A stretch of 64,000 nucleotides of DNA, taken from an uncultured Candidatus Saccharibacteria bacterium. GTDB taxonomy: Bacteria > Patescibacteriota > Minisyncoccia > Phycocordibacterales > Phycocordibacteraceae. The stretch's first letter is position 1; every line of letters begins with the position of its first letter. The translations under genes and the position numbers were made by a program. The DNA lies in the NCBI GenBank assembly GCA_964593365.1, contig CAZQGQ010000002.1, forward strand, positions 21,671 to 85,670, read 5' to 3'. Below, in pieces: positions 4,119-62,966 of the stretch. A model generated the notes under the pieces. The model made no database searches and was not told where the DNA came from. It saw only the letters and a list, made by a program, of their open reading frames with translations.

Positions 4119-4886
4119 CTAAAGAACGACAAAAAAGAATAGGAGCGCAAGTACGATTCGGTAGACGCCGAAAGGAATAAACGTATGGCTTCGCACATAT
4201 TGGAGAAGGAACTTGATGGAAGCGAATGCAACGATAAAGGAAATCACGAATCCAACCGCAAGGAGACCGAAGTCGTCAGGTGTGAAGAGTCCTGCGCTCT
4301 TATAAAGATCGAGACCCGTTGCGGCAAACATGACGGGGACCGCAAGCAAGAACGAGAACTCGACGACCGCAACGCGTCCAACGCCAAGCAGCAAACCTCC
4401 GAGGATGGTTGCAGCAGAACGTGAGACTCCAGGGATAATAGCGAGTGACTGGCACACGCCGATCCAAAACGATTGCGTGTAGGAAATGTCTTTAGTTTCC
4501 TTAGCAGCGGATTCTGATTCCTTATGCAGGAGCTCGAACGCGATAAGCGCCACGCCTCCAAGCAAGAGTGCCCAGAGAACTACCTGCGTGTTCTCAAGCA
4601 GATATTCCTTAGCGAATCCATACAAGAGGAGACCGATCACTCCTGTCGGAATAAACGCGACGATGACGCGCTTGAGGATCGCAATATCAAGGAAAGAGCG
4701 CCAGTAGAGAGCAACCACAGCGAGAATGGCTCCGAGCTGTATGGCTATTTCAAAGCTCTTGAGAAACTCTGTTGAGGGAATGCCAAGAAGGTCACTTACC
4801 AGAATCAAGTGACCGGTAGAAGAAACCGGCAGAAATTCTGTGAGTCCTTCAACGACTCCCAAAATGATCGCGTCTAAATAGCTCAT
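4119..4886 (-). CDS. uppP: Undecaprenyl-diphosphatase (UppP/BacA)
   Basis: 255 aa polytopic membrane protein with the EGLTEFLPVSSTGHL signature. Confidence 0.9.
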   Translation of the reverse strand: MSYLDAIILGVVEGLTEFLPVSSTGHLILVSDLLGIPSTEFLKSFEIAIQLGAILAVVALYWRSFLDIAILKRVIVAFIPTGVIGLLLYGFAKEYLLENTQVVLWALLLGGVALIAFELLHKESESAAKETKDISYTQSFWIGVCQSLAIIPGVSRSAATILGGLLLGVGRVAVVEFSFLLAVPVMFAATGLDLYKSAGLFTPDDFGLLAVGFVISFIVAFASIKFLLQYVRSHTFIPFGVYRIVLALLFFFVVL

Positions 4887-4912
4887 GTGGCCCCTAGTAT
4901 ACCGCGAGCGCT

Positions 4913-5497
4913 TTGCCCCAAGGGCTTAGCGCGGTATTCTGTAGCCTATCTATGCAGCTTACGCCCCCAGCACTCCTTGAAGCGCTCCTCTTCTCTGCAG
5001 GAGAGCCAATAGCCAAAAAGCGCCTTGCATCCCTCATTGGGGTCACTCCTGACATGCTCGAGAAGGCAGTTGAAGTCCTCAAAGATGACCTAGCGACTCG
5101 AGGTCTTTCTTTAGTTGAAACGGACGACGAGCTTGAGCTTCGCACCTCGCCTGAAGCAGCTGATTTTGTGAAAAAGCTCCGAGAGGCAGAACTGTCACGC
5201 GACCTTGGAAAGGCAAGCCTTGAGACACTTGCGATCGTGCTCTATAAGGGAAGCGCAACTCGAGGAGAGATCGATTGGGTGCGAGGCGTGAATTCGTCTG
5301 CAGCACTCCGCTCCCTTATGCTTCGCGGACTGGTTGAGCGAACCGAAGACACGACTGACCGACGTCGTGCTCGTTATAAGACCACCATCGATGCGCTTGC
5401 GCACCTTGGCGTTACCGAACGCTCCGCGCTCCCGCGCTATGAGGAACTGACCGGCATGCTTGATGAGCGAGCAGTCTCTGAAGAAACACCTGCATGA
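4913..5497 (+). CDS. scpB: Segregation and condensation protein B
   Basis: 194 aa. ALLFSAGEP motif and tandem winged-helix pattern. The true start may be the internal Met near 4952. Confidence 0.8.
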   Translation: MPQGLSAVFCSLSMQLTPPALLEALLFSAGEPIAKKRLASLIGVTPDMLEKAVEVLKDDLATRGLSLVETDDELELRTSPEAADFVKKLREAELSRDLGKASLETLAIVLYKGSATRGEIDWVRGVNSSAALRSLMLRGLVERTEDTTDRRRARYKTTIDALAHLGVTERSALPRYEELTGMLDERAVSEETPA

Positions 5498-6432
5498 TTA
5501 ATCTCGGACACATCTTCTCGAAGCTTCAGGCACGCGAACACGCTGGGCTTTTCTTTGCAGGTCTTGCGCTTGTGCTTGCTGTAGGCGCGCTTGGTACCGC
5601 TCAGTTTCTTGCGCGTCCAGAACCGGTGGTCGTTGAAACTCCAGCGCCAGCGCCAAATCCATACGGGAAGGTCGTGCTTACTGCTAAAGCAGCGATCGTG
5701 TACGACCTCATAACCGGCGAGGTGCTCTACGAGAAGAACGCGGAAGCCCAGCTCCCACTTGCGTCTCTCACAAAGCTTTTGACCTTGTACGCAGCAGCTG
5801 ACGCACTTGCCGGAGGAGCGCCAGTCCCGATGACTGCGGCTTCGCTTGCCCAAGAAGGAGATAACGGATTTAGCGAAGGAGAGCGATTCACATTCACCGA
5901 ACTTGCAAAGCTTGCTCTGGTCGCTTCATCAAATGACGCGGCTGATGCTATTGCCGTTGCCGCAGAGAGAAGCCGAGGAATGGATAAGGAACAATTGCTT
6001 GCGGCAGCGGGAAGCGCCGTTGGGCTTTCGCAGACCTACACGCTAAACGGAACAGGACTTGATGAAAGCAGCATCATTTCAGGCGGCTATGGATCCGCAC
6101 GCGATATGGCGCTTCTTGCAGGAGCCTTTCTTGAGCGCGTTCCTGGAATTGCCAGGGCAACATTGAACGCAACAGTGTCTGCAACCTCCCTTGATGGCCG
6201 CTCCTACACGCTTGAGAACACGAACCCCGAAGTCTCTACTATCCCAGGACTGCGCCTTTCAAAGACAGGGTATACGGATCTTGCAGGCGGGAACCTCGCG
6301 ATCGTCTTTGATGCTGGAATGAACCATCCGATCGCCGTGGTCGTTCTTGGCTCGACGCGGGAGGAACGATTTAGCGACGTTGATAAGCTCGTTCGCGCAA
6401 CAGCTTCTTCCTTTGCAGGACTCCTTCCATGA
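5494..6432 (+). CDS. D-alanyl-D-alanine carboxypeptidase, S11 penicillin-binding family
   Basis: 312 aa. N-terminal membrane anchor, then SxxK (SLTKLLT), SxN (SSNDAA) and KTG (KTGYT) motifs. Confidence 0.75.
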   Translation: MINLGHIFSKLQAREHAGLFFAGLALVLAVGALGTAQFLARPEPVVVETPAPAPNPYGKVVLTAKAAIVYDLITGEVLYEKNAEAQLPLASLTKLLTLYAAADALAGGAPVPMTAASLAQEGDNGFSEGERFTFTELAKLALVASSNDAADAIAVAAERSRGMDKEQLLAAAGSAVGLSQTYTLNGTGLDESSIISGGYGSARDMALLAGAFLERVPGIARATLNATVSATSLDGRSYTLENTNPEVSTIPGLRLSKTGYTDLAGGNLAIVFDAGMNHPIAVVVLGSTREERFSDVDKLVRATASSFAGLLP

Positions 6433-7490
6433 TTCTCGACGCCGCACGAGTCCTGATTCCGTTCATCCTCGCCTTTGCGACAGGAATCATACTCGCGCCC
6501 CTACTCGCTAACGAGCTCTACCGCAGGAAAGCCTGGAAGAAGAAAGCAGGGAAGGGAAACGGAATGGGAGATGAAAACGGCACTCCTTTGTTTGATGAAC
6601 TGCATCGGGAGCATGAGATGCGTGCGCCTCGCATGGGCGGCATGTTGGTATGGGCATCGGTTGCCTTAACCGCCTTTGGACTCGTGATTCTCGCATATTT
6701 GTTTAATGGCGTGTTCTCGCTTCTTGATTTCGTGAATCGCGGACAAACGTGGCTTCCGCTTGTCGCGCTCCTGGTTGGCGGGGTCGCTGGCTTATTCGAT
6801 GACTTCCTAGAAGTGAAAAGCGGGACGGGAGGACTTAAGCTTCGTTGGAGACTTTTAGTTGTAGCTATCATGGGCGCGTTTGCAGGCTGGTGGTTTTTTG
6901 AAAAGCTTGGCGTCTCCGCAGTCGGCCTGCCGTTCTTTGGTCCCTTCGAACTTGGTCTTCTGTTCATTCCGTTTTTCATACTGGTAACACTGGCTTTGTA
7001 CGCAAGCGGAGTAATAGACGGGATTGATGGACTTGCCGGGGGCGTGTTCGCGATTATCTTCATGGCCTATGCGGGAATCGCGTTTGCACAAAACCAGATC
7101 GCACTCTCGGCCTTTGCAGCAGCGGTTTCTGGCGGCTTGTTCGCATTCCTCTGGTTTAACGTGCCGCCTGCGCGCTTCTACCTTTCCGAGACCGGAACGA
7201 TGGCGCTCACGCTCGCGCTTGCCGTAACCGCCTTTTCAACCGACGTGCTTGGGGATGGGGTAGGGGTGGGTGTTCTTCCCTTTATCGCGCTTCCGCTTGC
7301 AGCCACCGTCGGTACGAGCGTTCTCCAGGTGCTCTGGAAGAAAATATGGAAGAAGAAGCTGTTTCGCATCGCTCCTATCCATCATCACTTTGAAGCGGTC
7401 GGCTGGCCGCCTTACAAGGTGACTATGCGCTATTGGATCATCACGATTATCGCGAGCGTGTTTGGTCTTGCGATGGCGCTTTTGAAATAA
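6429..7490 (+). CDS. mraY: Phospho-N-acetylmuramoyl-pentapeptide transferase
   Basis: 353 aa. DDxxE-type LFDDFLEV, GIDGLAGG and HHHFE motifs with multiple transmembrane segments. Confidence 0.9.
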   Translation: MILDAARVLIPFILAFATGIILAPLLANELYRRKAWKKKAGKGNGMGDENGTPLFDELHREHEMRAPRMGGMLVWASVALTAFGLVILAYLFNGVFSLLDFVNRGQTWLPLVALLVGGVAGLFDDFLEVKSGTGGLKLRWRLLVVAIMGAFAGWWFFEKLGVSAVGLPFFGPFELGLLFIPFFILVTLALYASGVIDGIDGLAGGVFAIIFMAYAGIAFAQNQIALSAFAAAVSGGLFAFLWFNVPPARFYLSETGTMALTLALAVTAFSTDVLGDGVGVGVLPFIALPLAATVGTSVLQVLWKKIWKKKLFRIAPIHHHFEAVGWPPYKVTMRYWIITIIASVFGLAMALLK

Positions 7491-7547: not shown

Positions 7548-8657
7548 ATGAGAAAAACCATTTCCGGCGACCGCGTTTTCTTCTTTATCGTCCTCATTCT
7601 CGTTGTTGGAGGCATCGCTACCTTTGCCTCTGCTGCCCTTGGCCTTCTTGCGCGCCCAGACTCAGCGCTCGGCCGGCTTGCGTTCACCCAGCTTGCGCTT
7701 GGACTTATTCCGGGTGTGATCGCCCTTCTCATTCTTCGCTTCTCTCCGCAGGCATTGATCGCTCAAGGGGCACCATGGATCTATGGCATTACGGTTGTAG
7801 CGACAGCGCTCGTGTTTGTCCCGGGACTTGGAGAGACGGTGAACGGAGCCACGCGCTGGATTGATGTTGGGTTTACGACTATTCAGCCAGGGGAGTTCCT
7901 GAAGATAGGCGTGGTGCTCATGCTCGCATTTCATCTTGCCCGAGTGAAAGGGAAGCTGCATGAGTTTTCGCATGGCCTTATCCCGTTCTTGCTCATCGTC
8001 GGGGTTCCGTCGCTTATTCTCTTGCTCCAGCCAAACACCTCAACAGTGATCGTGATCGGCATCATGGCGACGGCGCTCTACATTCTTGCTGGCGCTCCGT
8101 TTCGCGATATCGCGATCATAGGCGTTATCGCGGTCGTATTGCTTGGCGTCCTTCTTATGATGCGACCGTACTTGATGGATCGAGTTGCGACGTACTTCGA
8201 TCCCGCCCGAGACCCGCTCTCTTCCGGATATCAGATCCAGCAATCCTTGATCGCCATTGGTTCCGGGCAGATCATTGGCCGCGGATTCGGGCAAAGCGCT
8301 CAGAAGTTTAATTATCTTCCTGAACCGGTAGGGGATTCCGTGTTCGCGGTCTACGGCGAGGAGTTCGGGTTTGTCGGCGCAGTGTTACTCATATTGTTAT
8401 TTACTGCCTTTGCAGCGCGCGGCTTTTACATTGCCTCTTATGCGTCCACTATGTTCGGTTCGCTCACTGCGGCGGGCCTGACGCTCATCATCGTCATCTC
8501 GGCGTTCTTGAATATCGGAGCGATGCTTGCCATTTTGCCATTGACCGGATTGCCGCTTCCGTTTGTCTCCCACGGAGGAACCGCACTTTTGGCGGCCCTG
8601 GCTTCGGTTGGGATCATCTTGAACGTCGCCGCGCACCGCAAATCTAAGCGGGCCTAG
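7548..8657 (+). CDS. ftsW: SEDS-family peptidoglycan glycosyltransferase FtsW/RodA
   Basis: 369 aa, 10 TM. GEFLKIGVVL and PLPFVSHGGTALL motifs. Lies between mraY and murG. Confidence 0.85.
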   Translation: MRKTISGDRVFFFIVLILVVGGIATFASAALGLLARPDSALGRLAFTQLALGLIPGVIALLILRFSPQALIAQGAPWIYGITVVATALVFVPGLGETVNGATRWIDVGFTTIQPGEFLKIGVVLMLAFHLARVKGKLHEFSHGLIPFLLIVGVPSLILLLQPNTSTVIVIGIMATALYILAGAPFRDIAIIGVIAVVLLGVLLMMRPYLMDRVATYFDPARDPLSSGYQIQQSLIAIGSGQIIGRGFGQSAQKFNYLPEPVGDSVFAVYGEEFGFVGAVLLILLFTAFAARGFYIASYASTMFGSLTAAGLTLIIVISAFLNIGAMLAILPLTGLPLPFVSHGGTALLAALASVGIILNVAAHRKSKRA

Positions 8658-8682
8658 AGTGTTATAATCGCGGGATACTGCC

Positions 8683-9834
8683 ATGAAAGTCGTATTTACG
8701 GGAAGCGGGACGGGCGGACATTTCTACCCCAACATAGCCGTCGCAGAATCCATGCGAGCTATTGCTCGTGAGCGCAGGCTCCTTATGCCGCGCCTCTACT
8801 ACCTTGCCCCCTCAGCTTTCGATCAGGAGGCCCTCTTTGAGAACGAGATCATCTTTATACGTTGCCCTGCAGGGAAGTGGCGCAGGTATTTCTCCTTCCA
8901 GAACTTCACCGACCTATTTGTAACCGGGCTTGGGTTTATCTCTGCGATCTTCTCGCTCTTTCGCATCTATCCGGATGTCGTCTTTTCTAAAGGAGGGTAT
9001 GCGAGCGTTCCGGTCGTACTTGCTGCGCGCATGCTTGGCATTCCGGTGATGATCCATGAGTCAGACGCAAAGCCAGGGCGCGCCAACATCATGGCTTCAG
9101 GTTTTGCTATGCGCATCGCGGTTGCCTTTGATAGCGCGTCTGCTTATTTTCCGAAGAAAACACGGAGCAAGATCGCACGTACTGGTATCCCGATCCGATC
9201 GGGACTCACGCGTCCAGAGCCTGAAGGTGCTCGCGAAGAATTGAAGCTCGATATGTCCGTCCCTACCATCCTCATTCTTGGAGGGTCCTCAGGAGCACAG
9301 CGTTTGAATGACATCGTGCTTGGGGCATTGCCCGAGCTTATCGAGGAAGCCAACGTCATCCACCAGACCGGGAAAGATAACTTCCAGGGAGTCGAGGCGC
9401 TTGCGCGCTTGGTGCTTGAAAAGGGAGGCAACGCAGCTCGCTACCATCCGTTCCCATTCCTTTCGGTTCTTTCGCTTCGCCGAGGCGCAGGTGCAGCTGA
9501 CCTCGTCATCTCTCGCGCAGGCTCGACGACCGTTGCTGAGATCGCGCTATGGAAAAAGCCGGCTATTCTCGTTCCTATTCCTGAGTCCGTGAGCCATGAC
9601 CAGCGTGCAAACGCCTATGCATACGCTAATACCGGGGCTGCCATCGTGATCGAGGAAGCGAACCTCACCGCTCACGTCCTTGCCTCTGAAGTGAAGCGCT
9701 TGCTCGGGGACGCCACACTTCGAAAGACGATGGGAGAACAGAGTTCAACGTTTGCAAACGCAAACGCCGCAAACATCATTGCCGAAGAGATCATCGCGAT
9801 CGGACTTTCGCATGAGCCGATCATCCCGTCATGA
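8683..9834 (+). CDS. murG: Undecaprenyldiphospho-muramoylpentapeptide beta-N-acetylglucosaminyltransferase
   Basis: 383 aa. N-terminal GSGTGGHFYPNIAV and C-terminal SRAGSTTVAEIA signatures. A TGTTATAAT hexamer lies 17 nt upstream. Confidence 0.9.
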   Translation: MKVVFTGSGTGGHFYPNIAVAESMRAIARERRLLMPRLYYLAPSAFDQEALFENEIIFIRCPAGKWRRYFSFQNFTDLFVTGLGFISAIFSLFRIYPDVVFSKGGYASVPVVLAARMLGIPVMIHESDAKPGRANIMASGFAMRIAVAFDSASAYFPKKTRSKIARTGIPIRSGLTRPEPEGAREELKLDMSVPTILILGGSSGAQRLNDIVLGALPELIEEANVIHQTGKDNFQGVEALARLVLEKGGNAARYHPFPFLSVLSLRRGAGAADLVISRAGSTTVAEIALWKKPAILVPIPESVSHDQRANAYAYANTGAAIVIEEANLTAHVLASEVKRLLGDATLRKTMGEQSSTFANANAANIIAEEIIAIGLSHEPIIPS

Positions 9835-11322: not shown

Positions 11323-12597
11323 ATGAGACTGATCGCTCTTTTGCTTATTAGCGTTGCTCTTCTTGGAGCAATCGCCACGAGCACTCCACTTCCGACTCAT
11401 GCCGAGTCTATCGATGAGATCAAGGACCGGATTGATGAGATCAATCGCGAGCGCGCGAAGATAGACGAAGAAATCGCCGGATACCAGCGGGAGCTTAACG
11501 TCATCTCAGGACAGAAGCAGACACTCCAGTCTGCGATCCAGACGCTTGATGTCTCCCGCTCCAAGACTTCTGCGCAGATAAAAGAGATTCAAAACAAAAT
11601 CGGGGCAGCAACGCTTCGCCTTGAAGAGCTTTCATTTGAGATCACCGACAAGGAACAATCCATCGCGCTTGATCAGTCCACCGTCGCCGCATCGCTTCGT
11701 GCAATCGATATCGCGGACCAGGTTTCTTTTGTCGAGCGGCTTGTTGGAGCGGATGATTTTGCAGCAGCGTGGACCTCTATTGATAACCTCGCGACCTTGA
11801 ATCAATCGCTCCAGGAGCATGCTGCCTTGCTTGCAGGAGCAAAGATCGCGCTAGCAGAGCAGCAGACTTCCGTTTCTTCGACCAAGAATGAGCTCGCTTC
11901 TCATAGCGTTAATCTTGAAAGCCAGAAACAAGCGTTGGATATCAACCGACAAGGAAAGCAGACGCTTCTTTCACAGACCCAAGCGACCGAAAGCCAGTAC
12001 CAGGCAATGATCGCAGAGAAGCGCCGTCAGCAAGCCGCTTTCGAAGCCCAGCTCTTTACATACGAAGCGCAATTGAAACAAGCACTCGATCCTTCTTCCA
12101 TTCCAAGCGCAGGCTCTGGCGTTCTCGCATCTCCATTGGATAGCGTCTTTGTCACGCAGTATTTTGGTAGAACGGTTGATGCAAAGCGATTGTACGTATC
12201 TGGAACGCACGGCGGCATAGATTACCGAGCAACGATTGGCACGCCAATCAAAGCGTCTCTCACGGGAGTCGTCACCGATGTTGAAAGCACGAAGACTAAG
12301 AGTGGTTGCCAATACGGTAAGTGGGTACTCTTGAAACACGCGAACGGGCTCTCTACGCTTTATGGCCACCTTTCGTCAGTGAACGTTTCTCCAGGACAAA
12401 CTGTTTCAACAGGGGATCCGATAGGGCACAGCGGGGACACGGGATATGCAACCGGGCCGCACCTTCACTTTGGTGTGTATGCCACCTCCGGTATTCGTAT
12501 CGTTGACGCCTCCGCGCTTGGCTCTACGTACTGCGCAGGCATCAAGACCGTTGCATCTAACCCTGACGCATACCTTGATCCGATGTCGTATCTTTAG
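11323..12597 (+). CDS. M23-family peptidase with N-terminal signal peptide and coiled-coil (EnvC-like)
   Basis: About 425 aa from the ATG at 11323. The ORF track opens at a TTG at 11287. C-terminal HGGIDY ... GHSGDTGYATGPHLHFGVY LytM motifs. Upstream lies TTGTCT-17nt-TATACT-7nt-ATG. Confidence 0.8.
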   Translation: MRLIALLLISVALLGAIATSTPLPTHAESIDEIKDRIDEINRERAKIDEEIAGYQRELNVISGQKQTLQSAIQTLDVSRSKTSAQIKEIQNKIGAATLRLEELSFEITDKEQSIALDQSTVAASLRAIDIADQVSFVERLVGADDFAAAWTSIDNLATLNQSLQEHAALLAGAKIALAEQQTSVSSTKNELASHSVNLESQKQALDINRQGKQTLLSQTQATESQYQAMIAEKRRQQAAFEAQLFTYEAQLKQALDPSSIPSAGSGVLASPLDSVFVTQYFGRTVDAKRLYVSGTHGGIDYRATIGTPIKASLTGVVTDVESTKTKSGCQYGKWVLLKHANGLSTLYGHLSSVNVSPGQTVSTGDPIGHSGDTGYATGPHLHFGVYATSGIRIVDASALGSTYCAGIKTVASNPDAYLDPMSYL

Positions 12598-12627
12598 GTT
12601 CGAATCCTAGCTAGCCAGAAAAATAAG

Positions 12628-12652
12628 GAGCCCCCGGATATACCGAGGGCTC
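12628..12652 (-). terminator. Hairpin GAGCCCCCGG-atata-CCGAGGGCTC; on the minus strand it is followed by a T-run
   Basis: 10-bp stem with one mismatch. Plus-strand AGAAAAATAA immediately upstream gives TTATTTTTCT after the hairpin on the minus strand. Sits 7 nt past the stop of the minus-strand ORF 12659..12862. Confidence 0.5.
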
Positions 12653-12658
12653 AAGGTT

Positions 12659-12862
12659 CTATGCCACTCCTTTCTTAAACTTGTTACGAATCGAATCAAA
12701 GATCCACAGAGTCAGACCCCCGACTGCAATCGAACATATCCAAAGGAATATAACGACTTCATAGTAGACTCTTCTAATTCCAGTCGGCTTGTTCCTCACA
12801 TAGCGAACCGAGTCGTAAGAGATACACATGGATTTCTCCTTTGAAGATCCACTTCCTGCCAA
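12659..12862 (-). CDS. Hypothetical small membrane protein (67 aa)
   Basis: ORF with one hydrophobic helix (VVIFLWICSIAVGGLTLWIF). Bracketed by two terminator-like hairpins. Coding status uncertain. Confidence 0.3.
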   Translation of the reverse strand: MAGSGSSKEKSMCISYDSVRYVRNKPTGIRRVYYEVVIFLWICSIAVGGLTLWIFDSIRNKFKKGVA

Positions 12863-12892
12863 GGACCATTCCCTAGCAGGGTGGTAGACCCA

Positions 12893-12923
12893 AAAGAAAA
12901 ACCCCGTGGAGACGGGGTTTTTC
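12893..12923. terminator. Bidirectional rho-independent terminator AAAAACCCCGTGGAGACGGGGTTTTT
   Basis: Perfect 6-bp GC stem CCCCGT/ACGGGG with a GGAG loop, flanked by an A-run and a T-run. Confidence 0.65.
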
Positions 12924-13078
12924 AGATGAGTTCTAGAAAGAAATGTCTAGGATACAGAGAAAGCGCCACCGTCGGGGTTTACGATGGGCGGTACGGGAAG
13001 TGCAAAAATGTGCGCTTTCGTATTCATGTTTAAGCAGAATAGCTTAGAAGTTCTAATAAATCAAGTACGTTATATAGG

Positions 13079-13104
13079 TTTCAACATTGTCCCATACAGC
13101 CAGC
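13079..13104 (+). repeat. Island box copy 1 (TTTCAACATTGTCCCATACAGCCAGC)
   Basis: Followed by TATAAT, then 6 nt, then the ATG at 13117. Confidence 0.6.
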
Positions 13105-13116
13105 TATAATAACGGT

Positions 13117-13923
13117 ATGGACAGCACTTCTGCCTCCGACCTTACGAAACGCAATAAAGAAGTCATTCAAAGATTTATTGACTCGGTTAGAGACCGTGCA
13201 GACGGCGTTTTGCTTAGCGGGTCAAACGCCTGGGGAGCGGACTATGCGGTTACCGAGAAATCGGATATCGATCTCTTGGTCCTGGCAAAGGATATCCAAG
13301 GCATGAAGAAAATAATCGATTGCTATATCAGTAATAAATTACTTGTACCTAGGGAGCAAGAACGATTTGAAGCATTTAGCGCGCTATATGAGGAAGGAAG
13401 AGTAGAACAATTTTCTGTGATTGCAGACTATAAGGGTGTTCCGGTGAGCATAGATTTCTTTACCACAAAAACATTACAGTGGATCAGTTTCTTAACTTCA
13501 AAAAATACTGTTCTTCTTAACGGCGTGAGAGTGAGAGTCGTAAGCGAGTTGCGAACAAATCCTCCAAAAGCTTTCGGCTATTCTCTTGATGATTTACAAA
13601 GCTCAAAGAAACTTACCTATCATCCGGTGTTCGAAGAAATAAAAAGTCAGAAAGGCAATGTCTGTGGGTACCTCGCGCAAACTGCAGTCGATGCCTCTGA
13701 TGAACATACTTACTATCTTGGCGTCATGTCGTTTTTCCTTTGTGTCAGTCCGGTCGTGCTATTAGATAAAAACGGCGAACTGCAACGAGCTATACGAGAT
13801 TTGCGAACAAACATCTCAATTCTTTTGAAAGGGGAAGTTCCTCGCCATGTGACAAGAGAAGAACGAATGTCTGAGCAGGTCTTAGAAGAGGTAAAGAATG
13901 CCCTTAGTCCTAAGGGAGCCTAA
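13117..13923 (+). CDS. Pol-beta superfamily nucleotidyltransferase (antibiotic or nucleotide NTase-like; specificity unknown)
   Basis: 268 aa from the ATG at 13117. The track opens at a TTG at 13087 that lies inside the upstream box. GS-x14-DID motif (LSGSNAWGADYAVTEKSDIDLLVL) with a downstream acidic residue (VSIDFF). The helical C-terminal half is similar in size to ANT/Lnu-type or Abi-type NTases. GC is lower than in the core genes. Confidence 0.55.
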   Translation: MDSTSASDLTKRNKEVIQRFIDSVRDRADGVLLSGSNAWGADYAVTEKSDIDLLVLAKDIQGMKKIIDCYISNKLLVPREQERFEAFSALYEEGRVEQFSVIADYKGVPVSIDFFTTKTLQWISFLTSKNTVLLNGVRVRVVSELRTNPPKAFGYSLDDLQSSKKLTYHPVFEEIKSQKGNVCGYLAQTAVDASDEHTYYLGVMSFFLCVSPVVLLDKNGELQRAIRDLRTNISILLKGEVPRHVTREERMSEQVLEEVKNALSPKGA

Positions 13924-13928
13924 AAAGA

Positions 13929-13954
13929 TTCCAACATCGTCTCAGGCAGCCAGC
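13929..13954 (+). repeat. Island box copy 2 (TTCCAACATCGTCTCAGGCAGCCAGC)
   Basis: Lies between the convergent NTase and transglutaminase-like genes. Followed by a weak TATTTT. Confidence 0.55.
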
Positions 13955-14451
13955 TATTTTCTACGTTCATTCTCTAACCACTCGTTAAAAGCAGCATAGA
14001 ACTCTCCGTTGAGAGCAAGGTCTTTATTAATGACCTCCACGTTCTCATCGGCGATAATTGCAGCACTTTCTTTAATGGAGAACAATTTTAAACAAGAAAC
14101 CGCGATAGACGTGTTCGACTTTCCGTCCCACTCACTGACAGGAAGAATCATACTCAAAGAATTATCCCAGGTCGCATCGACATTAATCCAGTCTTTTTCA
14201 TTAAGTACCTCAAGGTATGCATGGGTAGAAGCATCTTCGTGAGCCTTTCCTGACACCTCAACGGGAAGATTGATATCGCTCCATTTGAAGGAACATACGC
14301 GCCATCGTACCTGAAGCCCCTCCTTCTCAAGAAGCGACTTAAGCTGCTTATGTTTACCGGTACAGGATTTGTCAGTTTCCTTCGAGGTTAGCGGAATTCG
14401 ATAGGGAATATCCCGAACCTGATTGAAAATCTCACGTAGGTCGGCTCTCAT
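13954..14451 (-). CDS. Transglutaminase-like / papain-fold cysteine peptidase domain protein
   Basis: 165 aa. Putative Cys nucleophile in SCTGKH, then the H-A-Y-L-E-V ... W-I-N-V-D-A-T-W-D block characteristic of the transglutaminase-like core (Cys-His-Asp). Upstream on its own strand lies TTGGAA-16nt-TAGCAT-6nt-ATG. Confidence 0.5.
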   Translation of the reverse strand: MRADLREIFNQVRDIPYRIPLTSKETDKSCTGKHKQLKSLLEKEGLQVRWRVCSFKWSDINLPVEVSGKAHEDASTHAYLEVLNEKDWINVDATWDNSLSMILPVSEWDGKSNTSIAVSCLKLFSIKESAAIIADENVEVINKDLALNGEFYAAFNEWLENERRK

Positions 14452-14479
14452 ACCCCCATGCTAGCAGGTGCTTGGCAAG

Positions 14480-14505
14480 TTCCAACATCGTCCCAGACAG
14501 CCAGG
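14480..14505 (+). repeat. Island box copy 3 (TTCCAACATCGTCCCAGACAGCCAGG)
   Basis: In the divergent gap between the transglutaminase-like gene and the zinc-ribbon gene, about 155 nt upstream of the ATG at 14661. Confidence 0.6.
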
Positions 14506-14660
14506 GTTGCATGGCTTAAGCGAAAGGAATCTATCGATGTGTACAACAAAGAATCAACTTACAGTCCGTCCACTCTTGCGGATTGATCTGTATGTAAATG
14601 ACCATAATCTTGTGTTTCCGATTTTAATATGTTTTAATCCAATAAACATAACTCCTACTC

Positions 14661-15071
14661 ATGCCTGATTATCAAAAGCCTCGCTTTGCCAAAAAACCCT
14701 TTAACCGTGGGGGTCAAGATCGTTTTAGCGATTCAAAAGAGATGCACAAAACTAACTGCAGCAAATGTAACAATCTGTGCGAAGTACCGTTTCGCCCAAA
14801 CGGCAAGAAACCAGTTTTCTGCAGCAACTGTTTCGTCAAAGACGATGCGCCCCGTCCTTCATATGGTCCGAAGCGTGATTTTTCTCCACGTCCATCTTTT
14901 AGCCCAGCGCCTTCTCGCGATGACCATGGGATGCAGGATCTAAAAATGCAGATGCAAGGCGTAAACGACAAGCTTACCCAGCTCATTCAACTTATGGAAT
15001 CTGCCCAGGCGCCTGTTACTGAGAAGGCTTCAGTAAAAAGGGTAGCCAAAGCAGGGACTAAGAAGAAATAA
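14661..15071 (+). CDS. Hypothetical zinc-ribbon protein with a low-complexity Pro/Ser linker
   Basis: 136 aa. CSKCNNLCEVPFRPNGKKPVFCSNCF resembles a topoisomerase-type C4 zinc ribbon. Basic C-terminal tail. Confidence 0.4.
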   Translation: MPDYQKPRFAKKPFNRGGQDRFSDSKEMHKTNCSKCNNLCEVPFRPNGKKPVFCSNCFVKDDAPRPSYGPKRDFSPRPSFSPAPSRDDHGMQDLKMQMQGVNDKLTQLIQLMESAQAPVTEKASVKRVAKAGTKKK

Positions 15072-15110
15072 TAGCCAGTATCTCCACAAGGCATATTCTC
15101 TAAGCAAGGT

Positions 15111-15136
15111 TCCAACGTCGTCCCAGACAACCGGCT
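15111..15136 (+). repeat. Island box copy 4 (TTCCAACGTCGTCCCAGACAACCGGC)
   Basis: Followed by TATACT, then 6 nt, then the ATG at 15153. Confidence 0.6.
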
Positions 15137-15152
15137 CGTTTATACTAGTCCT

Positions 15153-15557
15153 ATGAAGATATATCTCGGTTGTTCACTTACTCAAGCTCCAGAGGACTTT
15201 AAGACCGTTATTGGAGACTTAAAGAACAGGCTCCGGCAGGACTACGACGTATTAGACTTCATTGGTACCGTCGCTGGCACACCTCATGAGGTCTACAACT
15301 GGGATATTCACGAATGCGTTGCAAAGTGCGATGCCTTCATTGCGATTTGCGATCTGCCAGCCATAGGTCTTGGTTATGAACTCAGTGTCGCAGTCGAGAA
15401 GCTCAAGAAGCCGACGCTCGCTCTTGCGCATACGGATGCGAAAATCTCACGTCTTCTTCTTGGTATCAAACAGCCTCACTACATATTTGAACGCTACGAT
15501 TCTTTTGACGAGGTGGAAGACCGGATCAGATTATTCCTAAGCAGTTTAGAGAAATAA
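15153..15557 (+). CDS. Nucleoside 2-deoxyribosyltransferase-like (NDT-like) Rossmann-fold protein
   Basis: 134 aa. N-terminal MKIYLGCS and the block AIGLGYELSVAVEKLKKP match the NDT signature (KIYFAG ... GLGMELGYA..GK). Confidence 0.5.
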   Translation: MKIYLGCSLTQAPEDFKTVIGDLKNRLRQDYDVLDFIGTVAGTPHEVYNWDIHECVAKCDAFIAICDLPAIGLGYELSVAVEKLKKPTLALAHTDAKISRLLLGIKQPHYIFERYDSFDEVEDRIRLFLSSLEK

Positions 15558-15558
15558 G

Positions 15559-15584
15559 TTGCAAGGTCGGCCCAGACTGGGGCA
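15559..15584 (+). repeat. Island box copy 5 (TTGCAAGGTCGGCCCAGACTGGGGCA)
   Basis: The core CCCAG-A-CTGGG is a perfect inverted repeat here. A TTTATAT sequence lies 4 nt before the ATG at about 15616. Confidence 0.5.
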
Positions 15585-15615
15585 CGTGGTACTGTTTTAG
15601 AAACTTTATATCCCT

Positions 15616-16479
15616 ATGTCTGTCGCAATTGGTGTCTTGCTTGCCTTGATAGCCCTCGTCGCATGGGGTTTGGGGGACTTTTTAATTCAGAGAACTACCA
15701 GGCTGGTAGGTAGCGCCAAGGCTCTTTTCTTCATAGGAGTTGTTGCATTCGTTGTTTTGTTTCCGTTTGTACTACACGAACTTCCACATCTCACGTTCGC
15801 AAACTACCTCTTGCTCGGGACGCTGTCTTTAGCGGTTATCTTCGGAGCAGCTTTTGACTTCGAGGCTCTGCGCACCGGCAAAATGGCCGCTGTTGAACCA
15901 GTGGTGGGTCTTGAGCTTCCGATGACGGTCATTCTGAGCGTCATCTTCGTAGGTGAACATCTAACAGGACATCAGCTCTTTTGGATGCTTCTCGTGTTCA
16001 TTGGAACGGGGCTTACGGTTACAAAAAGCATAAGCCACTTGTCACAGGCATTCGAAAAGGGAGTGTGGCTCGCCTTTCTAGCAGCAATTGGTACAGCGTT
16101 AACTTCGCTCTTGGTTGGTATGTCGAGTCAGGAGATTTCTCCACTCGTTTCTATATGGTTTTCGCACGGGACGTTAGCGCTCGTGTCGGGTCTGTATATT
16201 CTTCGTTCTGGCCAGATGAGATCCGTTATACAAGATATCCGCAGCCACCCTGTAACTATTGGCTGCCAAAGCGTCTTTGATAACCTCGCGTGGATTGCTT
16301 TTGCCATTGCAGCAACCCTTATTCCGATCTCAATCGCTACGACCATTAGCGGGGGATATGTTGCCCTTGGGGTACTGCTTGGTATTTTCGTAAGCCGCGA
16401 GCGTGTTCGTGGTCATCAGGCGTTCGGTATTGCGCTTGTATCGATTGGCATTATTGCTCTCTCCTATTATTTCAGCTAG
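15616..16479 (+). CDS. EamA/DMT-family transporter
   Basis: 287 aa, about 10 TM. GDFLIQR-type EamA signature and two internally repeated halves. Confidence 0.7.
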   Translation: MSVAIGVLLALIALVAWGLGDFLIQRTTRLVGSAKALFFIGVVAFVVLFPFVLHELPHLTFANYLLLGTLSLAVIFGAAFDFEALRTGKMAAVEPVVGLELPMTVILSVIFVGEHLTGHQLFWMLLVFIGTGLTVTKSISHLSQAFEKGVWLAFLAAIGTALTSLLVGMSSQEISPLVSIWFSHGTLALVSGLYILRSGQMRSVIQDIRSHPVTIGCQSVFDNLAWIAFAIAATLIPISIATTISGGYVALGVLLGIFVSRERVRGHQAFGIALVSIGIIALSYYFS

Positions 16480-16484
16480 CAAGA

Positions 16485-16510
16485 TTTCCATGTCGTTCCA
16501 GGCAATTAAT
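16485..16510 (+). repeat. Island box copy 6 (TTTCCATGTCGTTCCAGGCAATTAAT)
   Basis: Followed by TACTATATT, then 4 nt, then the ATG at 16534. Confidence 0.5.
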
Positions 16511-16533
16511 AACAATCTGTTACTATATTCCGC

Positions 16534-17073
16534 ATGAAAGTCATCATCGCTTCCCACAATCCTGTGAAAATCAATGCCGCTAGGGAAGCGTTCAAGCAAA
16601 TGTTTCCGGGAGAGACATTTGAGGTTATAGGGACTGATGTTCCTTCAGACGTTTCTGACCAACCTATGACCGACACTGAGACGTATACCGGTGCTGTAAA
16701 CCGCGCGGAAAACGCTTCCCAGAAAGAGAGCGATGCTGACTTCTGGGTAGGAATCGAGGGCGGATTAGAAGAGAAAAGTGGAGATCTTGAATGTTTCGCG
16801 TGGGTGGTAATAAAAGATAAAGACGGAACGATTGGCAAAGGAAGAAGCGCCGCGTTCTTTTTGCCGCCTGCGGTAGCCCAGAAGATCCGTGAGGGAATGG
16901 AACTCGGGCATGCAGCGGACGCAGTTTTTAACGAGACCAACCTGAAGCAAAACCAAGGCACCGTTGGCATGCTCACGAAGGGATTAATCGAGAGGACGAA
17001 GTACTATGTCGATCCGGCGATTATGGCGTTAATCCCGTTTGCGAACCCTTCGCTGTTTGGAAAAACTGGCTAA
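16534..17073 (+). CDS. Inosine/xanthosine triphosphatase, YjjX family
   Basis: 179 aa. NPVKINAAREAF, DFWVGIEGG and GMLTKGLIERT closely follow the E. coli YjjX pattern. Confidence 0.75.
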   Translation: MKVIIASHNPVKINAAREAFKQMFPGETFEVIGTDVPSDVSDQPMTDTETYTGAVNRAENASQKESDADFWVGIEGGLEEKSGDLECFAWVVIKDKDGTIGKGRSAAFFLPPAVAQKIREGMELGHAADAVFNETNLKQNQGTVGMLTKGLIERTKYYVDPAIMALIPFANPSLFGKTG

Positions 17074-17087
17074 GCTCAATTCTTTGT

Positions 17088-17543
17088 ATGGATCAAGGCA
17101 TTCTAGACTACATTAAATCCCAGCGAATCTCCGTGTTTGGAATCGAGATGCTTGATGGTTCACCACATGGTGCAACAGTACATTTCGCACATCAAGAGAA
17201 CCCGTTAACTTTCATATTTGAAACGAGTTCGAAATACCGCAAGAGCGAGCCCTTGCTCGCCAACGACACAGCCCGAGCAACGCTCGTCATTGGATTTGTT
17301 GAAGGGCCGACTGAAAAAACATTCCAAGCAGACGGGATCGCAACGTTGCTTACGAGTGATGACCAGCTAAAGAAAGTCTATCTGTCGAAGTTTCCAGAAA
17401 AGGAAGCAAAGGCAGGAGATCCAGACAACATTTTCTTCTCCTTCACTCCAACATGGTGGAGATTCACTGATTGGGGCCGACCAGAAGGGAAGACCGTTAT
17501 CACTTCAGACGGCAAAGTAGTTGTCGCAGGGAAGTCTGCTTAA
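17088..17543 (+). CDS. Pyridoxamine 5'-phosphate oxidase-like (split-barrel, FMN-binding) family protein
   Basis: 151 aa. Size and hydrophobic periodicity resemble PNPOx-like or general-stress-protein-26 folds. Only 14 nt downstream of the ITPase gene, so probably co-transcribed. Confidence 0.4.
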   Translation: MDQGILDYIKSQRISVFGIEMLDGSPHGATVHFAHQENPLTFIFETSSKYRKSEPLLANDTARATLVIGFVEGPTEKTFQADGIATLLTSDDQLKKVYLSKFPEKEAKAGDPDNIFFSFTPTWWRFTDWGRPEGKTVITSDGKVVVAGKSA

Positions 17544-17545
17544 AG

Positions 17546-18160
17546 CTATTTAGTATCCCGGCTCTTCCAAAGGATTCGGCAGGCGAGCGAGCGGTACGGA
17601 GACCAGCAAGCAGATATCTTCTCAAGCTTTGCCCGTGACGGGTTCTTGATCATATACAGATCTTCAATAGAGCGTACGAGCCCAAGGTCTCCTGCAGAGA
17701 AAATGTCCGGATGCTGAAGCGCGAACATGAGAAACATCTCGCTCGTCCAGGGGCCAATGCCCCATACTGCAGTTAATGTTTCTTCTGCTTCTTCCGGGGA
17801 CTTCTTGCGAAGGGAAGGGAGGTCGAGTCCTTTGGTAACCGCTTTTGCGAGTTCTTTTAAGGTCTTTGCTTTTGCGCTGGAGAGTCCGGCTTTGCGAAGG
17901 CGGGGAAGAGAAGTCTTCAGTACTGACGAAGGAGTGACCTTGCCTCCGCACACACTTTCTACCCGAGCCCAAATAGCGTCCGCTGCCTTCACGGCTAGCT
18001 GCTGGCTTACGACTGATTCAGCAAGCGCCGCGAACAAGCGATCAGACCCGCGTACTTGAGGACGTCGCAGAATAAGTTTCCGGTGACTGTACGCAGCTTG
18101 GTACATGATTGGATCGACGCGCTTGAAGTGGCGAAGAGCGTTAGGGAGATCAGGATGCAT
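17546..18160 (-). CDS. alkA: DNA-3-methyladenine glycosylase II-like (HhH-GPD)
   Basis: 204 aa. Helix-hairpin-helix motif VWGIGPWTSEMFLMFAL followed by a catalytic Asp in SAGDLGL. Confidence 0.7.
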   Translation of the reverse strand: MHPDLPNALRHFKRVDPIMYQAAYSHRKLILRRPQVRGSDRLFAALAESVVSQQLAVKAADAIWARVESVCGGKVTPSSVLKTSLPRLRKAGLSSAKAKTLKELAKAVTKGLDLPSLRKKSPEEAEETLTAVWGIGPWTSEMFLMFALQHPDIFSAGDLGLVRSIEDLYMIKNPSRAKLEKISACWSPYRSLACRILWKSRDTK

Positions 18161-18186: not shown

Positions 18187-18223
18187 TTCCTTTTTACGCA
18201 CGTTAGGCTATATAATCCGTCGT

Positions 18224-18421
18224 ATGGTACGCCTCATTATCTGGATCGTTATTGGGCTTCTGGCCCTCTCATTTTTTGGCATCTCCCTTCGAGCACTCGT
18301 TGATAACCCAACAAACCAGGACAATTGGTCCTTTTTACTAGCCTTGCTCCGAGACGGCTGGGACTATATAACCGCTTGGTTTGAAGATGCATTCCGCCCG
18401 ATCGCTCAGTGGTTCGACTAA
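18224..18421 (+). CDS. Hypothetical small membrane protein (65 aa)
   Basis: Internal ATG of track ORF 18056..18421. The earlier part of that ORF is antisense to alkA. One TM helix (LIIWIVIGLLALSFFGI). Confidence 0.45.
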   Translation: MVRLIIWIVIGLLALSFFGISLRALVDNPTNQDNWSFLLALLRDGWDYITAWFEDAFRPIAQWFD

Positions 18422-62855: not shown

Positions 62856-62927
62856 TCCGCGGTAGCTCAGTGGTAGAGCGGTCGACTGTTAATCGATTGG
62901 TCGTAGGTTCGAATCCTACCCGCGGAG
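62856..62927 (+). tRNA. tRNA-Asn (anticodon GUU)
   Basis: Acceptor UCCGCGG/CCGCGGA, D-arm GCUCAGUGGUAGAGC, anticodon loop CUGUUAA, T-arm GUAGG-UUCGAAU-CCUAC, discriminator G. No CCA encoded. Confidence 0.85.
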
Positions 62928-62966
62928 CAGATAGCATTACACGGTATTTCTTGGAATACTGTAAGT

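Follow-up and report, generated by a model that had tools for sequence, protein, structure and literature searches.

A 35-nt sequence that probably delimits mobile single-gene cassettes behind tRNA-Gln 3′ ends in Patescibacteria

Background

Patescibacteria have tiny genomes and cannot be grown alone, and the gain and loss of their accessory genes are poorly understood. Among the closest described systems, chromosomal integrons typically carry cargo of the GNAT, NUDIX and immunity types; in the staphylococcal cassette chromosome (SCC), Ccr serine recombinases insert elements at the 3′ end of the conserved gene rlmH (orfX), direct repeats of the integration site lie between tandem elements, and elements lacking a recombinase depend on mobilization in trans. 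The 3′ end of a tRNA gene is a target more typical of tyrosine integrases than of large serine recombinases (LSRs). Among the elements of the Prochlorococcus tycheposon islands, a minority rely on LSRs (bioRxiv 10.1101/2020.12.28.424599). In serine-integrase sites, attP and attB have the same zinc-ribbon-domain motif, which in attB is 5 bp nearer the centre (PMC3783163). The present analysis concerns a 64-kb stretch of contig CAZQGQ010000002.1 from an uncultured Candidatus Saccharibacteria bacterium (hereafter the window), with a gene content of the Patescibacteria type, in which a short sequence, termed the box, is repeated between consecutive small genes at nt 13072–16512. An initial annotation had taken the box for an operator, an activator site or an alternative-sigma promoter that defines a small regulon. 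Comparison with related loci points instead, with good though incomplete confidence, to a site-specific recombination site of the attP or attC type, which marks the distal end of a mobile single-gene cassette.

Results and discussion

Conservation and distribution of the box

Alignment of the copies gave a consensus of 35 nt, A.AAAGG-TTCCAACATCGTCCCAGACAGCCAG-CAA, with flanks at background level; to the right of the box, the information amounted to approximately 0.1–0.2 bit from 4 nt past CCAG onward. The conserved block described in the initial annotation was thus real but longer than the 24–26 nt assigned to it, extending from 7 nt before TTCC to 3 nt after CCAG. A degenerate pattern of 25 nt was found at 37 loci of species-representative genomes, which were named as metagenome-assembled genomes of Patescibacteria, Paceibacterota or Parcubacteria or given no phylum, and on at least 119 metagenomic contigs; at least 305 distinct instances of the box were gathered. 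The box is not specific to the island in the window and recurs across Patescibacteria genomes and metagenomes (156 loci, numbered with the prefix L). No match was obtained among the 2.9 million contigs of IMG/VR, and a viral origin of the box was rejected for this reason.

Whether taken as RNA or as DNA, the box folded no better than its shuffled versions (z −0.45 to +1.3). Several structural candidates were rejected: an attC-like hairpin, since the 35-mer has no dyad symmetry and gives no folding signal on either strand; a tRNA-like fold, since the T-stem positions are not complementary and both ARAGORN and Rfam were blank at the boxes; a repetitive extragenic palindrome (REP) or miniature inverted-repeat transposable element (MITE), since there is no dyad and the orientation at each locus is strictly single; and an intrinsic terminator or structured RNA, since there is neither a stable fold nor a match to any Rfam family.

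Organization of the arrays

The 156 loci contained 376 boxes with a median spacing of 550 nt, and none of the 104 loci with two or more boxes mixed strands. Exactly one gene was held by 174 of the 225 intervals between boxes (77%); 155 of the cassette genes in the intervals lay on the plus strand, that is, co-oriented with the box, and 79 on the opposite strand. For the 319 boxes with both neighbours called, the pairs were ++ (152), +− (66; convergent, 21%), −+ (58) and −− (43; antisense to both neighbours, 13%), counts close to those predicted by independence, with no depletion of the convergent and double-antisense classes, and a minus-strand gene lay downstream of 34% of the boxes. Since one third of the genes are on the opposite strand and these two classes are so frequent, the box is neither a gene-oriented promoter nor a terminator. 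Its strand is that of the array, independent of the neighbouring gene, and it tracks the region: 74% of the flanking genes lay on the box strand, and GC skew was positive on that strand in 120 of 157 loci.

Co-oriented genes were packed closely between the boxes, the commonest stop being located 5 nt (or 2–3 nt) before the next box and the commonest start 20–22 nt past the previous one, while the starts of minus-strand genes peaked 50–59 nt before the next box. Genes following a box showed the sequence (TGn)TAnnnT, then 6–7 nt, then ATG, with the −10 element 1–25 nt from the box (commonest 8–10 nt). Starts of this form were also noted at nt 13105–13119, 15141–15155, 14449–14466 (minus strand) and 18210–18228 of the window and in many loci. 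Leaderless mRNAs from extended −10 promoters lacking a recognizable −35 appear to be the usual gene start in these genomes, and this −10/ATG geometry belongs to each cassette, not to the box.

The 234 cassette proteins were almost all singletons and mutually unrelated. The majority had no Pfam match; those that did matched NUDIX, HAD, GNAT, TIR, Imm5-like, NYN and similar families, and no fragment of a recombinase or Rep protein was seen among them in the Pfam search.

tRNA-Gln and its 3′-end copies at the array heads

The loci contained 45 tRNA genes; 32 were tRNA-Gln, and all 32 lay on the box strand upstream of the first box. A pattern running from the T-loop to the discriminator revealed 64 more free fragments of the tRNA-Gln 3′ end (chance expectation 0), referred to as site A. 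Taken together, 88 of these 96 head sites on the box strand (32 genes and 64 fragments) were upstream of the first box, usually one cassette length away. The pattern is loose and also fits the 3′ ends of other tRNAs; the link to tRNA-Gln rests on the tRNA gene calls. In the window, the 3′ end of tRNA-Asn (62856–62928) fits it with 2 mismatches, and there is no box in the remaining 1 kb.

The box and site A share a distal motif, GGTTC(C/G)AA, and a proximal motif, GCCAGC(AA); the length between them is 28 nt in the box (GGTTCCAACATCGTCCCAGACAGCCAGC) versus 23 nt in site A (GGTTCGAGTCCTAGTCTGCCAGC). The box is therefore 5 nt longer than the tRNA-Gln end, differs from it in the middle, and is unchanged in genomes whose tRNA-Gln acceptor stems differ. 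Genes after site A have the same −10/ATG geometry as those after a box. As in the window, site A follows the stop codon of an M23 peptidase homologue in L008, L009, L075 and L160, with a different array behind each. Mobile DNA in general lands at the tRNA-Gln head.

Further arrangements were observed around the heads. A second hotspot, found in at least seven loci (L013, L016, L027, L037, L038 and others), has the order dnaX, sometimes an M10 peptidase gene, tRNA-Gln and array. Partial duplications of tRNA-Gln lie just 3′ of an intact tRNA-Gln in L018 (oriented 7040–7200), L049 (7773–7945), L054/L091 (8–120) and L087 (3752–3850), two of them preceded by the common sequence CTCACTCGCTTG; L054 and L091 each have an atypical tRNA-Gln with a canonical tRNA-Gln 3′ fragment 16 nt behind it, and in L087 a box is followed 50 nt later by a 5′-truncated tRNA-Gln(CUG). 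In L161, an IS110-family transposase (oriented 7870–8952) is located between tRNA-Gln and the array.

Differences between related loci

L159 and L165 have the upstream gene and site A in common at 91% identity, and their homology ends at CAGC. Past site A, they carry three and two unrelated cassettes, respectively, and then a cassette that the two have in common (95% identity), its two boxes included; thereafter L159 has one more unit of cassette plus box, and the following 2.1 kb is common to both. Homology stops exactly at the end of site A in the pairs L066/L099 and L056/L070 and begins 5 nt before a box in L009/L025. Single cassettes also recurred elsewhere: L146 and L167, whose surroundings otherwise differ, have one cassette in common, which extends from CCAGC in site A through the end of the first box, and one cassette (91% identity) is the first in L067 and the third in L011, with homology stopping at the end of the right-hand box. 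Since the differences cluster by the head and the common units lie distally, these comparisons fit insertion at the head. Across the arrays, mismatches in the box increased weakly with rank from the head (rho 0.21, p 0.04).

A large serine recombinase at some heads

In seven loci, an LSR gene lies between site A and the first box, on the opposite strand; where visible, its 3′ end abuts site A, and a RepSA-like gene follows. A recombinase gene beside one junction was seen in L091, L107 and L117 and in the LSR-first loci L168–L171, but neither in the window nor in most arrays. In a test starting from the protein, five LSR homologues (47–64% identity) of more than 2,500 relatives were located in their contigs. 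Of these, two abut tRNA-Gln; behind them, beyond an element of 4–5 kb, lie arrays of five and seven boxes. Two others abut tRNA-Lys and tRNA-Trp, respectively, with a box-type site 3.8–6.8 kb away in each; these sites have a box-like start (TTCCAACATCGTCCCA and TTCGAATCTCGTCCCA), and their final 9 or 7 nt are those of the tRNA concerned. Whether the tRNA is Gln, Lys or Trp, the box-type site is 28 nt and the tRNA site 23 nt, so that the relation of box to tRNA site matches that of attP to attB half-sites (PMC3783163). On this reading, the universal T-loop GGTTCGAA would be the distal motif of the host site, and the box would imitate the T-loop 5 bp further out.

Integrated Patescibacteria elements of 4–7 kb form a family (L091:108–2430, L107, L117 and L168–L172, 10001–11500 each), in which the LSR 3′ end abuts or overlaps the 3′ end of a tRNA (Gln, Lys, Trp or Ser). 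Their gene order is LSR, a RepSA/REP_ORF2-G2P-like replication gene, an Xre-type helix-turn-helix gene and small zinc-ribbon genes. In L168 the LSR reading frame apparently crosses the junction into the tRNA, and in L107 (oriented 4246–5187) a CRESS-like gene for Viral_Rep plus RNA helicase lies inside the recombinase element.

An integrase adjoining the arrays was rejected as a candidate, as no Phage_integrase family was among the recurrent flank families. XerD-like proteins were encoded in 2 of the 156 loci, not at array heads: directly past the last box in L122 (oriented 5434–6507, minus strand) and near the array in L156 (4771–5628, minus strand). Both are probably housekeeping Xer proteins.

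The array in the window

A search of the whole window with the 26-mer consensus gave four plus-strand copies with at most 3 mismatches (13079–13104, 13929–13954, 14480–14505 and 15110–15135; chance expectation 0). With a weight matrix from 305 boxes outside the window, these were ranks 1–4 of 127,932 window positions, at 37–42 bits. The copies at 15559 and 16485 have 9 mismatches in 25 nt each and matrix ranks 8 and 7, level with two chance sites, and the latter was also recovered by a looser pattern search; their position was the reason for counting them as decayed copies, since together they occupy exactly the next two intergenic gaps and lie on the same strand, 1 and 5 nt past the stop codons. 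From the head outward, the boxes have 3, 2, 0, 3, 9 and 9 mismatches. Of the six to seven copies listed in the initial annotation, four strong and two decayed ones were retained, whereas the seventh (18168) was rejected at matrix rank 15,683; the fourth copy is real but starts at 15110 instead of 15111. All accepted copies are, as described there, on the plus strand and non-coding, and no additional copy was found on either strand of the window. The features are as follows.

12597–12619, plus strand: site A, GGTTCGAATCCTAGCTAGCCAGA, a free copy of the tRNA-Gln 3′ end (T-loop, 3′ strand of the T-stem, 3′ strand of the acceptor), directly past the M23 peptidase stop codon; head of the array, putative attB-type site
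12620–13071, minus strand: interval 0, from site A to box 1, with small minus-strand open reading frames (ORFs) and two terminator hairpins, according to the ORF list, the public gene call and a terminator scan
13072–13106, plus strand: box 1, extended 35-nt motif; core 13079–13103, 3 mismatches to the consensus, rank 1
13105–13923, plus strand: cassette 1; TATAAT 13105–13110, 6 nt, ATG 13117; 268-aa protein; stop codon TAA 13921–13923 overlapping the start of the box 2 motif
13922–13956, plus strand: box 2; core 13929–13953, 2 mismatches, rank 2; between convergent gene ends
13954–14466, minus strand: cassette 2, inverted; 165-aa gene at 13954–14451 with its own putative leaderless promoter, by direct reading
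14473–14507, plus strand: box 3; core 14480–14504, identical to the cross-locus consensus, rank 3
14661–15071, plus strand: cassette 3, 156 nt past box 3; 136-aa treble-clef zinc-finger protein (zf_Tbcl_2, by domain match)
15103–15137, plus strand: box 4; core 15110–15134, 3 mismatches, rank 4
15141–15557, plus strand: cassette 4; TATACT 15141–15146, 6 nt, ATG 15153; 134-aa NDT-like protein, related to nucleoside 2-deoxyribosyltransferases
15552–15586, plus strand: box 5, decayed; core 15559–15583, 9 mismatches, rank 8; beginning 1 nt past the stop codon
15616–16479, plus strand: cassette 5; 287-aa EamA-family transporter (domain match)
16478–16512, plus strand: box 6, decayed; core 16485–16509, 9 mismatches, rank 7; beginning 5 nt past the stop codon
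16521–17543, plus strand: last unit, two genes with no box after them; TACTAT 16521–16526, 7 nt, ATG 16534
17546–18160, minus strand: HhH-GPD DNA glycosylase gene, conserved flank on the distal side of the hotspot, outside the array

Site A of the window has 2 mismatches to GGTTCGANYCCYNGYCNSSCAGC, with 0.04 matches expected by chance. Interval 0 contains a minus-strand ORF at 12659–12829/12862 (56–67 aa) with a Shine-Dalgarno sequence and a terminator hairpin at 12628–12652, and a possible minus-strand ORF at 12947–13027 (approximately 26 aa) with its own −35/−10 and a terminator hairpin at 12896–12923. The 268-aa protein of cassette 1, named as a nucleotidyltransferase in the initial annotation, had no Pfam match. 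Cassette 2 has an extended −10, TGcTAGCAT (reverse complement of 14458–14466), 6 nt from its ATG; its −35, TTGGAA, is provided by box 3, whose first 6 nt (14480–14485) are the reverse complement, and the spacer is 16 nt. Homologues of cassette 3 adjoin arrays in L022, L029 and L031; distant homologues of the cassette 4 protein have PF05014 or are named ‘nucleoside 2-deoxyribosyltransferase’; the last unit encodes NTPase_I-T (YjjX-type ITPase/XTPase, 16534–17073) and a PNPOx-like protein (17088–17543); and homologues of the DNA glycosylase flank arrays in L008, L009, L025 and L043.

The −10-like hexamers reported close to the ATG were confirmed before cassettes 1 and 4 and the last unit, and the leaderless mRNAs proposed from them agree with the related loci, in which genes start 20–22 nt past the box with the same element and spacing. 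Box 2 lies between convergent genes (stops at 13923 and 13954) and, as had been remarked, is ill-suited to a promoter. The palindrome CCCAGACTGGG, proposed as a hairpin core in copy 5, is present, but only in this decayed copy, and no copy folds better than shuffles. The terminator scan detected no hairpin terminators between the plus-strand cassettes of the window. Gene order was identical in all seven contigs carrying this array. With no recombinase within the 64 kb and the two distal boxes decayed, the array is probably a resident, partly fossil one.

A model of cassette capture

The arrays could arise as follows. An array would begin at the tRNA-Gln 3′ end or at a free copy, 23 nt long, of that end (site A); new units would enter at the head beside site A, with the crossover in or beside the invariant CCAGC that ends both sites, and older units would be pushed outward. 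Comparison of box positions 18 and 20 with site A suggests a crossover in or beside CCAGC and right of GAC(A/T); the similarity of the boxes prevents finer placement. Each unit would consist of a box and a single gene of either orientation with its own minimal promoter (extended −10, with transcription starting at the ATG). The probable enzyme, acting in trans, would be an LSR of the one clade that was found at some array heads.

A more far-reaching version, put forward tentatively and with less confidence than the role of the box itself, is an integron-like platform made of different parts. An LSR, often on a small integrative Rep-bearing element, would insert circular single-gene cassettes at the tRNA-Gln 3′ end or at free mimics of it planted behind core genes; as the 35-nt attP-type arm of the cassette imitates the tRNA end, the head site would be regenerated and reusable. 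If true, this would be a main route of accessory-gene flux in these reduced genomes.

Several points weigh against the box being such a recombination site. No recombinase of any kind is encoded in the window, and no recombinase family was recurrent within 2.5 kb of most arrays. Two recognizable half-sites around a central dinucleotide are the norm for serine integrases; here only the left arm is conserved, with almost no information to the right of CCAGCAA, and a conserved right arm was found only in the elements that carry a recombinase gene, overlapping coding sequence there. Recombination between attP and attL is not carried out by classical serine integrases, so that repeated insertion at one head has to assume a relaxed requirement for the right arm. 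Neither circular cassettes, empty sites nor strain-level polymorphism was seen, the seven contigs with the window array all having the same order, and homologous recombination could also produce breakpoints at 35-nt repeats. Finally, the set of 156 loci (869 kb) was collected via the box itself and includes some duplicates of one genome, and its genes were called crudely from ORFs.

Alternative explanations

Among the alternatives, the one that survives best, although it is unlikely, is that the boxes are passive scars, namely attR junctions of successive full-size LSR elements that entered at tRNA-Gln and were mostly deleted, the cassettes being leftover cargo that was never mobile singly. 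Full elements of 4–7 kb indeed end with plus-strand cargo genes and a box, arrays lie distal to such elements, and distal boxes decay; Prochlorococcus islands likewise push out older elements and remnants (bioRxiv 10.1101/2020.12.28.424599). Random decay of 5-kb elements would not, however, yield intervals of which 77% hold one gene packed against both sites (modal stop-to-box distance 5 nt, box-to-ATG 20–22 nt). Moreover, the cassette proteins included no recombinase or Rep fragments, and the same cassette occurs with precise site-to-site limits in different contexts (L146/L167 and L011/L067).

Somewhat less probable is a role of the boxes as anchors for homologous recombination, the 35-nt repeats allowing RecA to swap or delete DNA after natural transformation with no dedicated enzyme. 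The breakpoints fall in or at the edges of boxes and cannot be placed more finely, and the loss of a unit in L165 relative to L159 is the outcome expected of direct-repeat recombination. Near-invariance of 35 nt across genera nevertheless needs a selective agent, which a binding protein would supply; site A shares only the end motifs with the box, yet the first cassettes differ right after site A; and, beside the LSR gene, the box varies in its proximal part in step with the tRNA that is targeted (Gln, Lys or Trp).

The reading of the initial annotation, in which a regulator or an alternative sigma factor binds the box and controls the leaderless gene behind it, so that the boxed genes form a regulon, is improbable. 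The modal distances from box to −10 (8–10 nt) and to ATG (20–22 nt) are as such a reading would have them; copy 1 has TCAACA 18 nt ahead of TATAAT, in agreement with the sigma-70 consensus at 10 of 12 positions; and the reverse complement of the 5′ end of the box supplies TTGGAA 16–18 nt from the extended −10 of minus-strand genes, the arrangement TTGGAA, N17-18, TGnTAnnnT being found also in L009, L016, L025, L028 and L040. But of the 319 boxes, 66 are flanked by convergent gene ends and 43 by two genes to which they are antisense, the distance to the −10 varies over 1–25 nt, extended −10 elements with TGn dispense with a −35, and the same geometry follows tRNA-Gln 3′ ends, where there is no box. 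The strand of the box is set by the array and never by the gene, the boxed genes are unrelated between genomes, and 35 contiguous nt conserved across genera exceed what a promoter element needs. The initial annotation had also suggested looking for the box upstream of orthologous genes; of four NDT-like homologues traced in other genomes, only one had a box upstream and the other three were in unrelated contexts, and a conserved regulon was rejected on this basis. Also rejected were a sigma-54 or extracytoplasmic-function (ECF) promoter, the candidate elements being wrongly spaced on either strand, and a sigma-70-type promoter element or operator, there being no constant co-oriented gene downstream and no fixed distance to the −10. 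A longer conserved element seen upstream of the box in L016, L025, L028 and L040 proved to be the extended −10 promoter of divergent minus-strand genes with TTGGAA in the box as the −35, and does not belong to the repeat. The use of the box for promoter parts looks like compaction against a fixed element, not the function of the box itself, and the 35-mer should not be annotated as a promoter motif.

It is very improbable that the box is RNA-level punctuation, that is, a tRNA-like 3′-end, processing or stability signal of the upstream gene: stop codons 2–5 nt before the box, its relation to the tRNA 3′ end and the lack of hairpin terminators between the plus-strand cassettes of the window would suit this, but the box has no T-arm pairing, folding signal or Rfam match, and one third of the upstream genes are on the other strand.

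Comparison with known systems

A literature search, which included both strands of the box and themes of cassettes in Patescibacteria and Parcubacteria, found no description of such arrays; as far as it shows, this gene-capture arrangement in many Patescibacteria is undescribed. If the arrays are active, they would be a second, independently built answer to the integron problem, in which a serine recombinase takes the place of the tyrosine recombinase and a tRNA mimic that of the folded attC, and would explain why strains vary at hotspots behind tRNA-Gln, dnaX and the M23 peptidase gene. As a simple sequence tag, the box can serve to recover the mobile genes of this group from metagenomes. The arrays also lead to a large family of serine integrases (more than 2,500 relatives), whose short sites, defined by sequence, could be tried out for genome engineering.

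The arrays resemble integrons and clusters of attC sites lacking integron integrases (CALIN) in that co-oriented sites separate mostly single, small and highly diverse accessory genes, occasional cassettes are inverted and have their own promoter, the newest cassettes apparently lie beside a distinct primary site, and most arrays have no adjacent recombinase. They differ in the nature of the site, since attC has imperfect inverted repeats (R″/L″ with L′/R′) and folds as single-stranded DNA whereas the box has neither inverted repeats nor a single-strand fold, and since attC is conserved in structure, not in sequence, whereas the 35-nt sequence of the box is nearly invariant across genera. The primary site here is the 3′ end of tRNA-Gln; instead of an IntI-type tyrosine recombinase with attI and Pc at the head, the candidate is a serine recombinase; and the cassettes would have leaderless promoters of their own, independent of a common Pc promoter. 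Staphylococcal SCC elements differ in being tens of kb in size, in targeting rlmH (orfX) and not a tRNA or its mimic, and in forming no single-gene arrays.

Tycheposon islands of Prochlorococcus likewise start at a tRNA gene, with newer elements displacing older ones outward, contain scattered partial tRNA repeats and mostly have no intact integrase (bioRxiv 10.1101/2020.12.28.424599). The units here are, however, single genes of approximately 0.5 kb and not multi-kb elements, and in contrast to tRNA-seeded islands in general, the internal repeat is a distinct site found across the lineage, 5 nt longer than, and not a copy of, the resident tRNA end. Compared with the attP and attB sites of LSRs, only one arm is conserved here, tandem arrays are formed around single genes, and reuse of the head would be unexpected under a rule that allows attP × attB only. 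The likeness to these sites lies in the common distal and proximal motifs, with an attP-type arm 5 nt longer (PMC3783163), in a recombinase gene that abuts one junction, and in elements that carry Rep and Xre-type genes.

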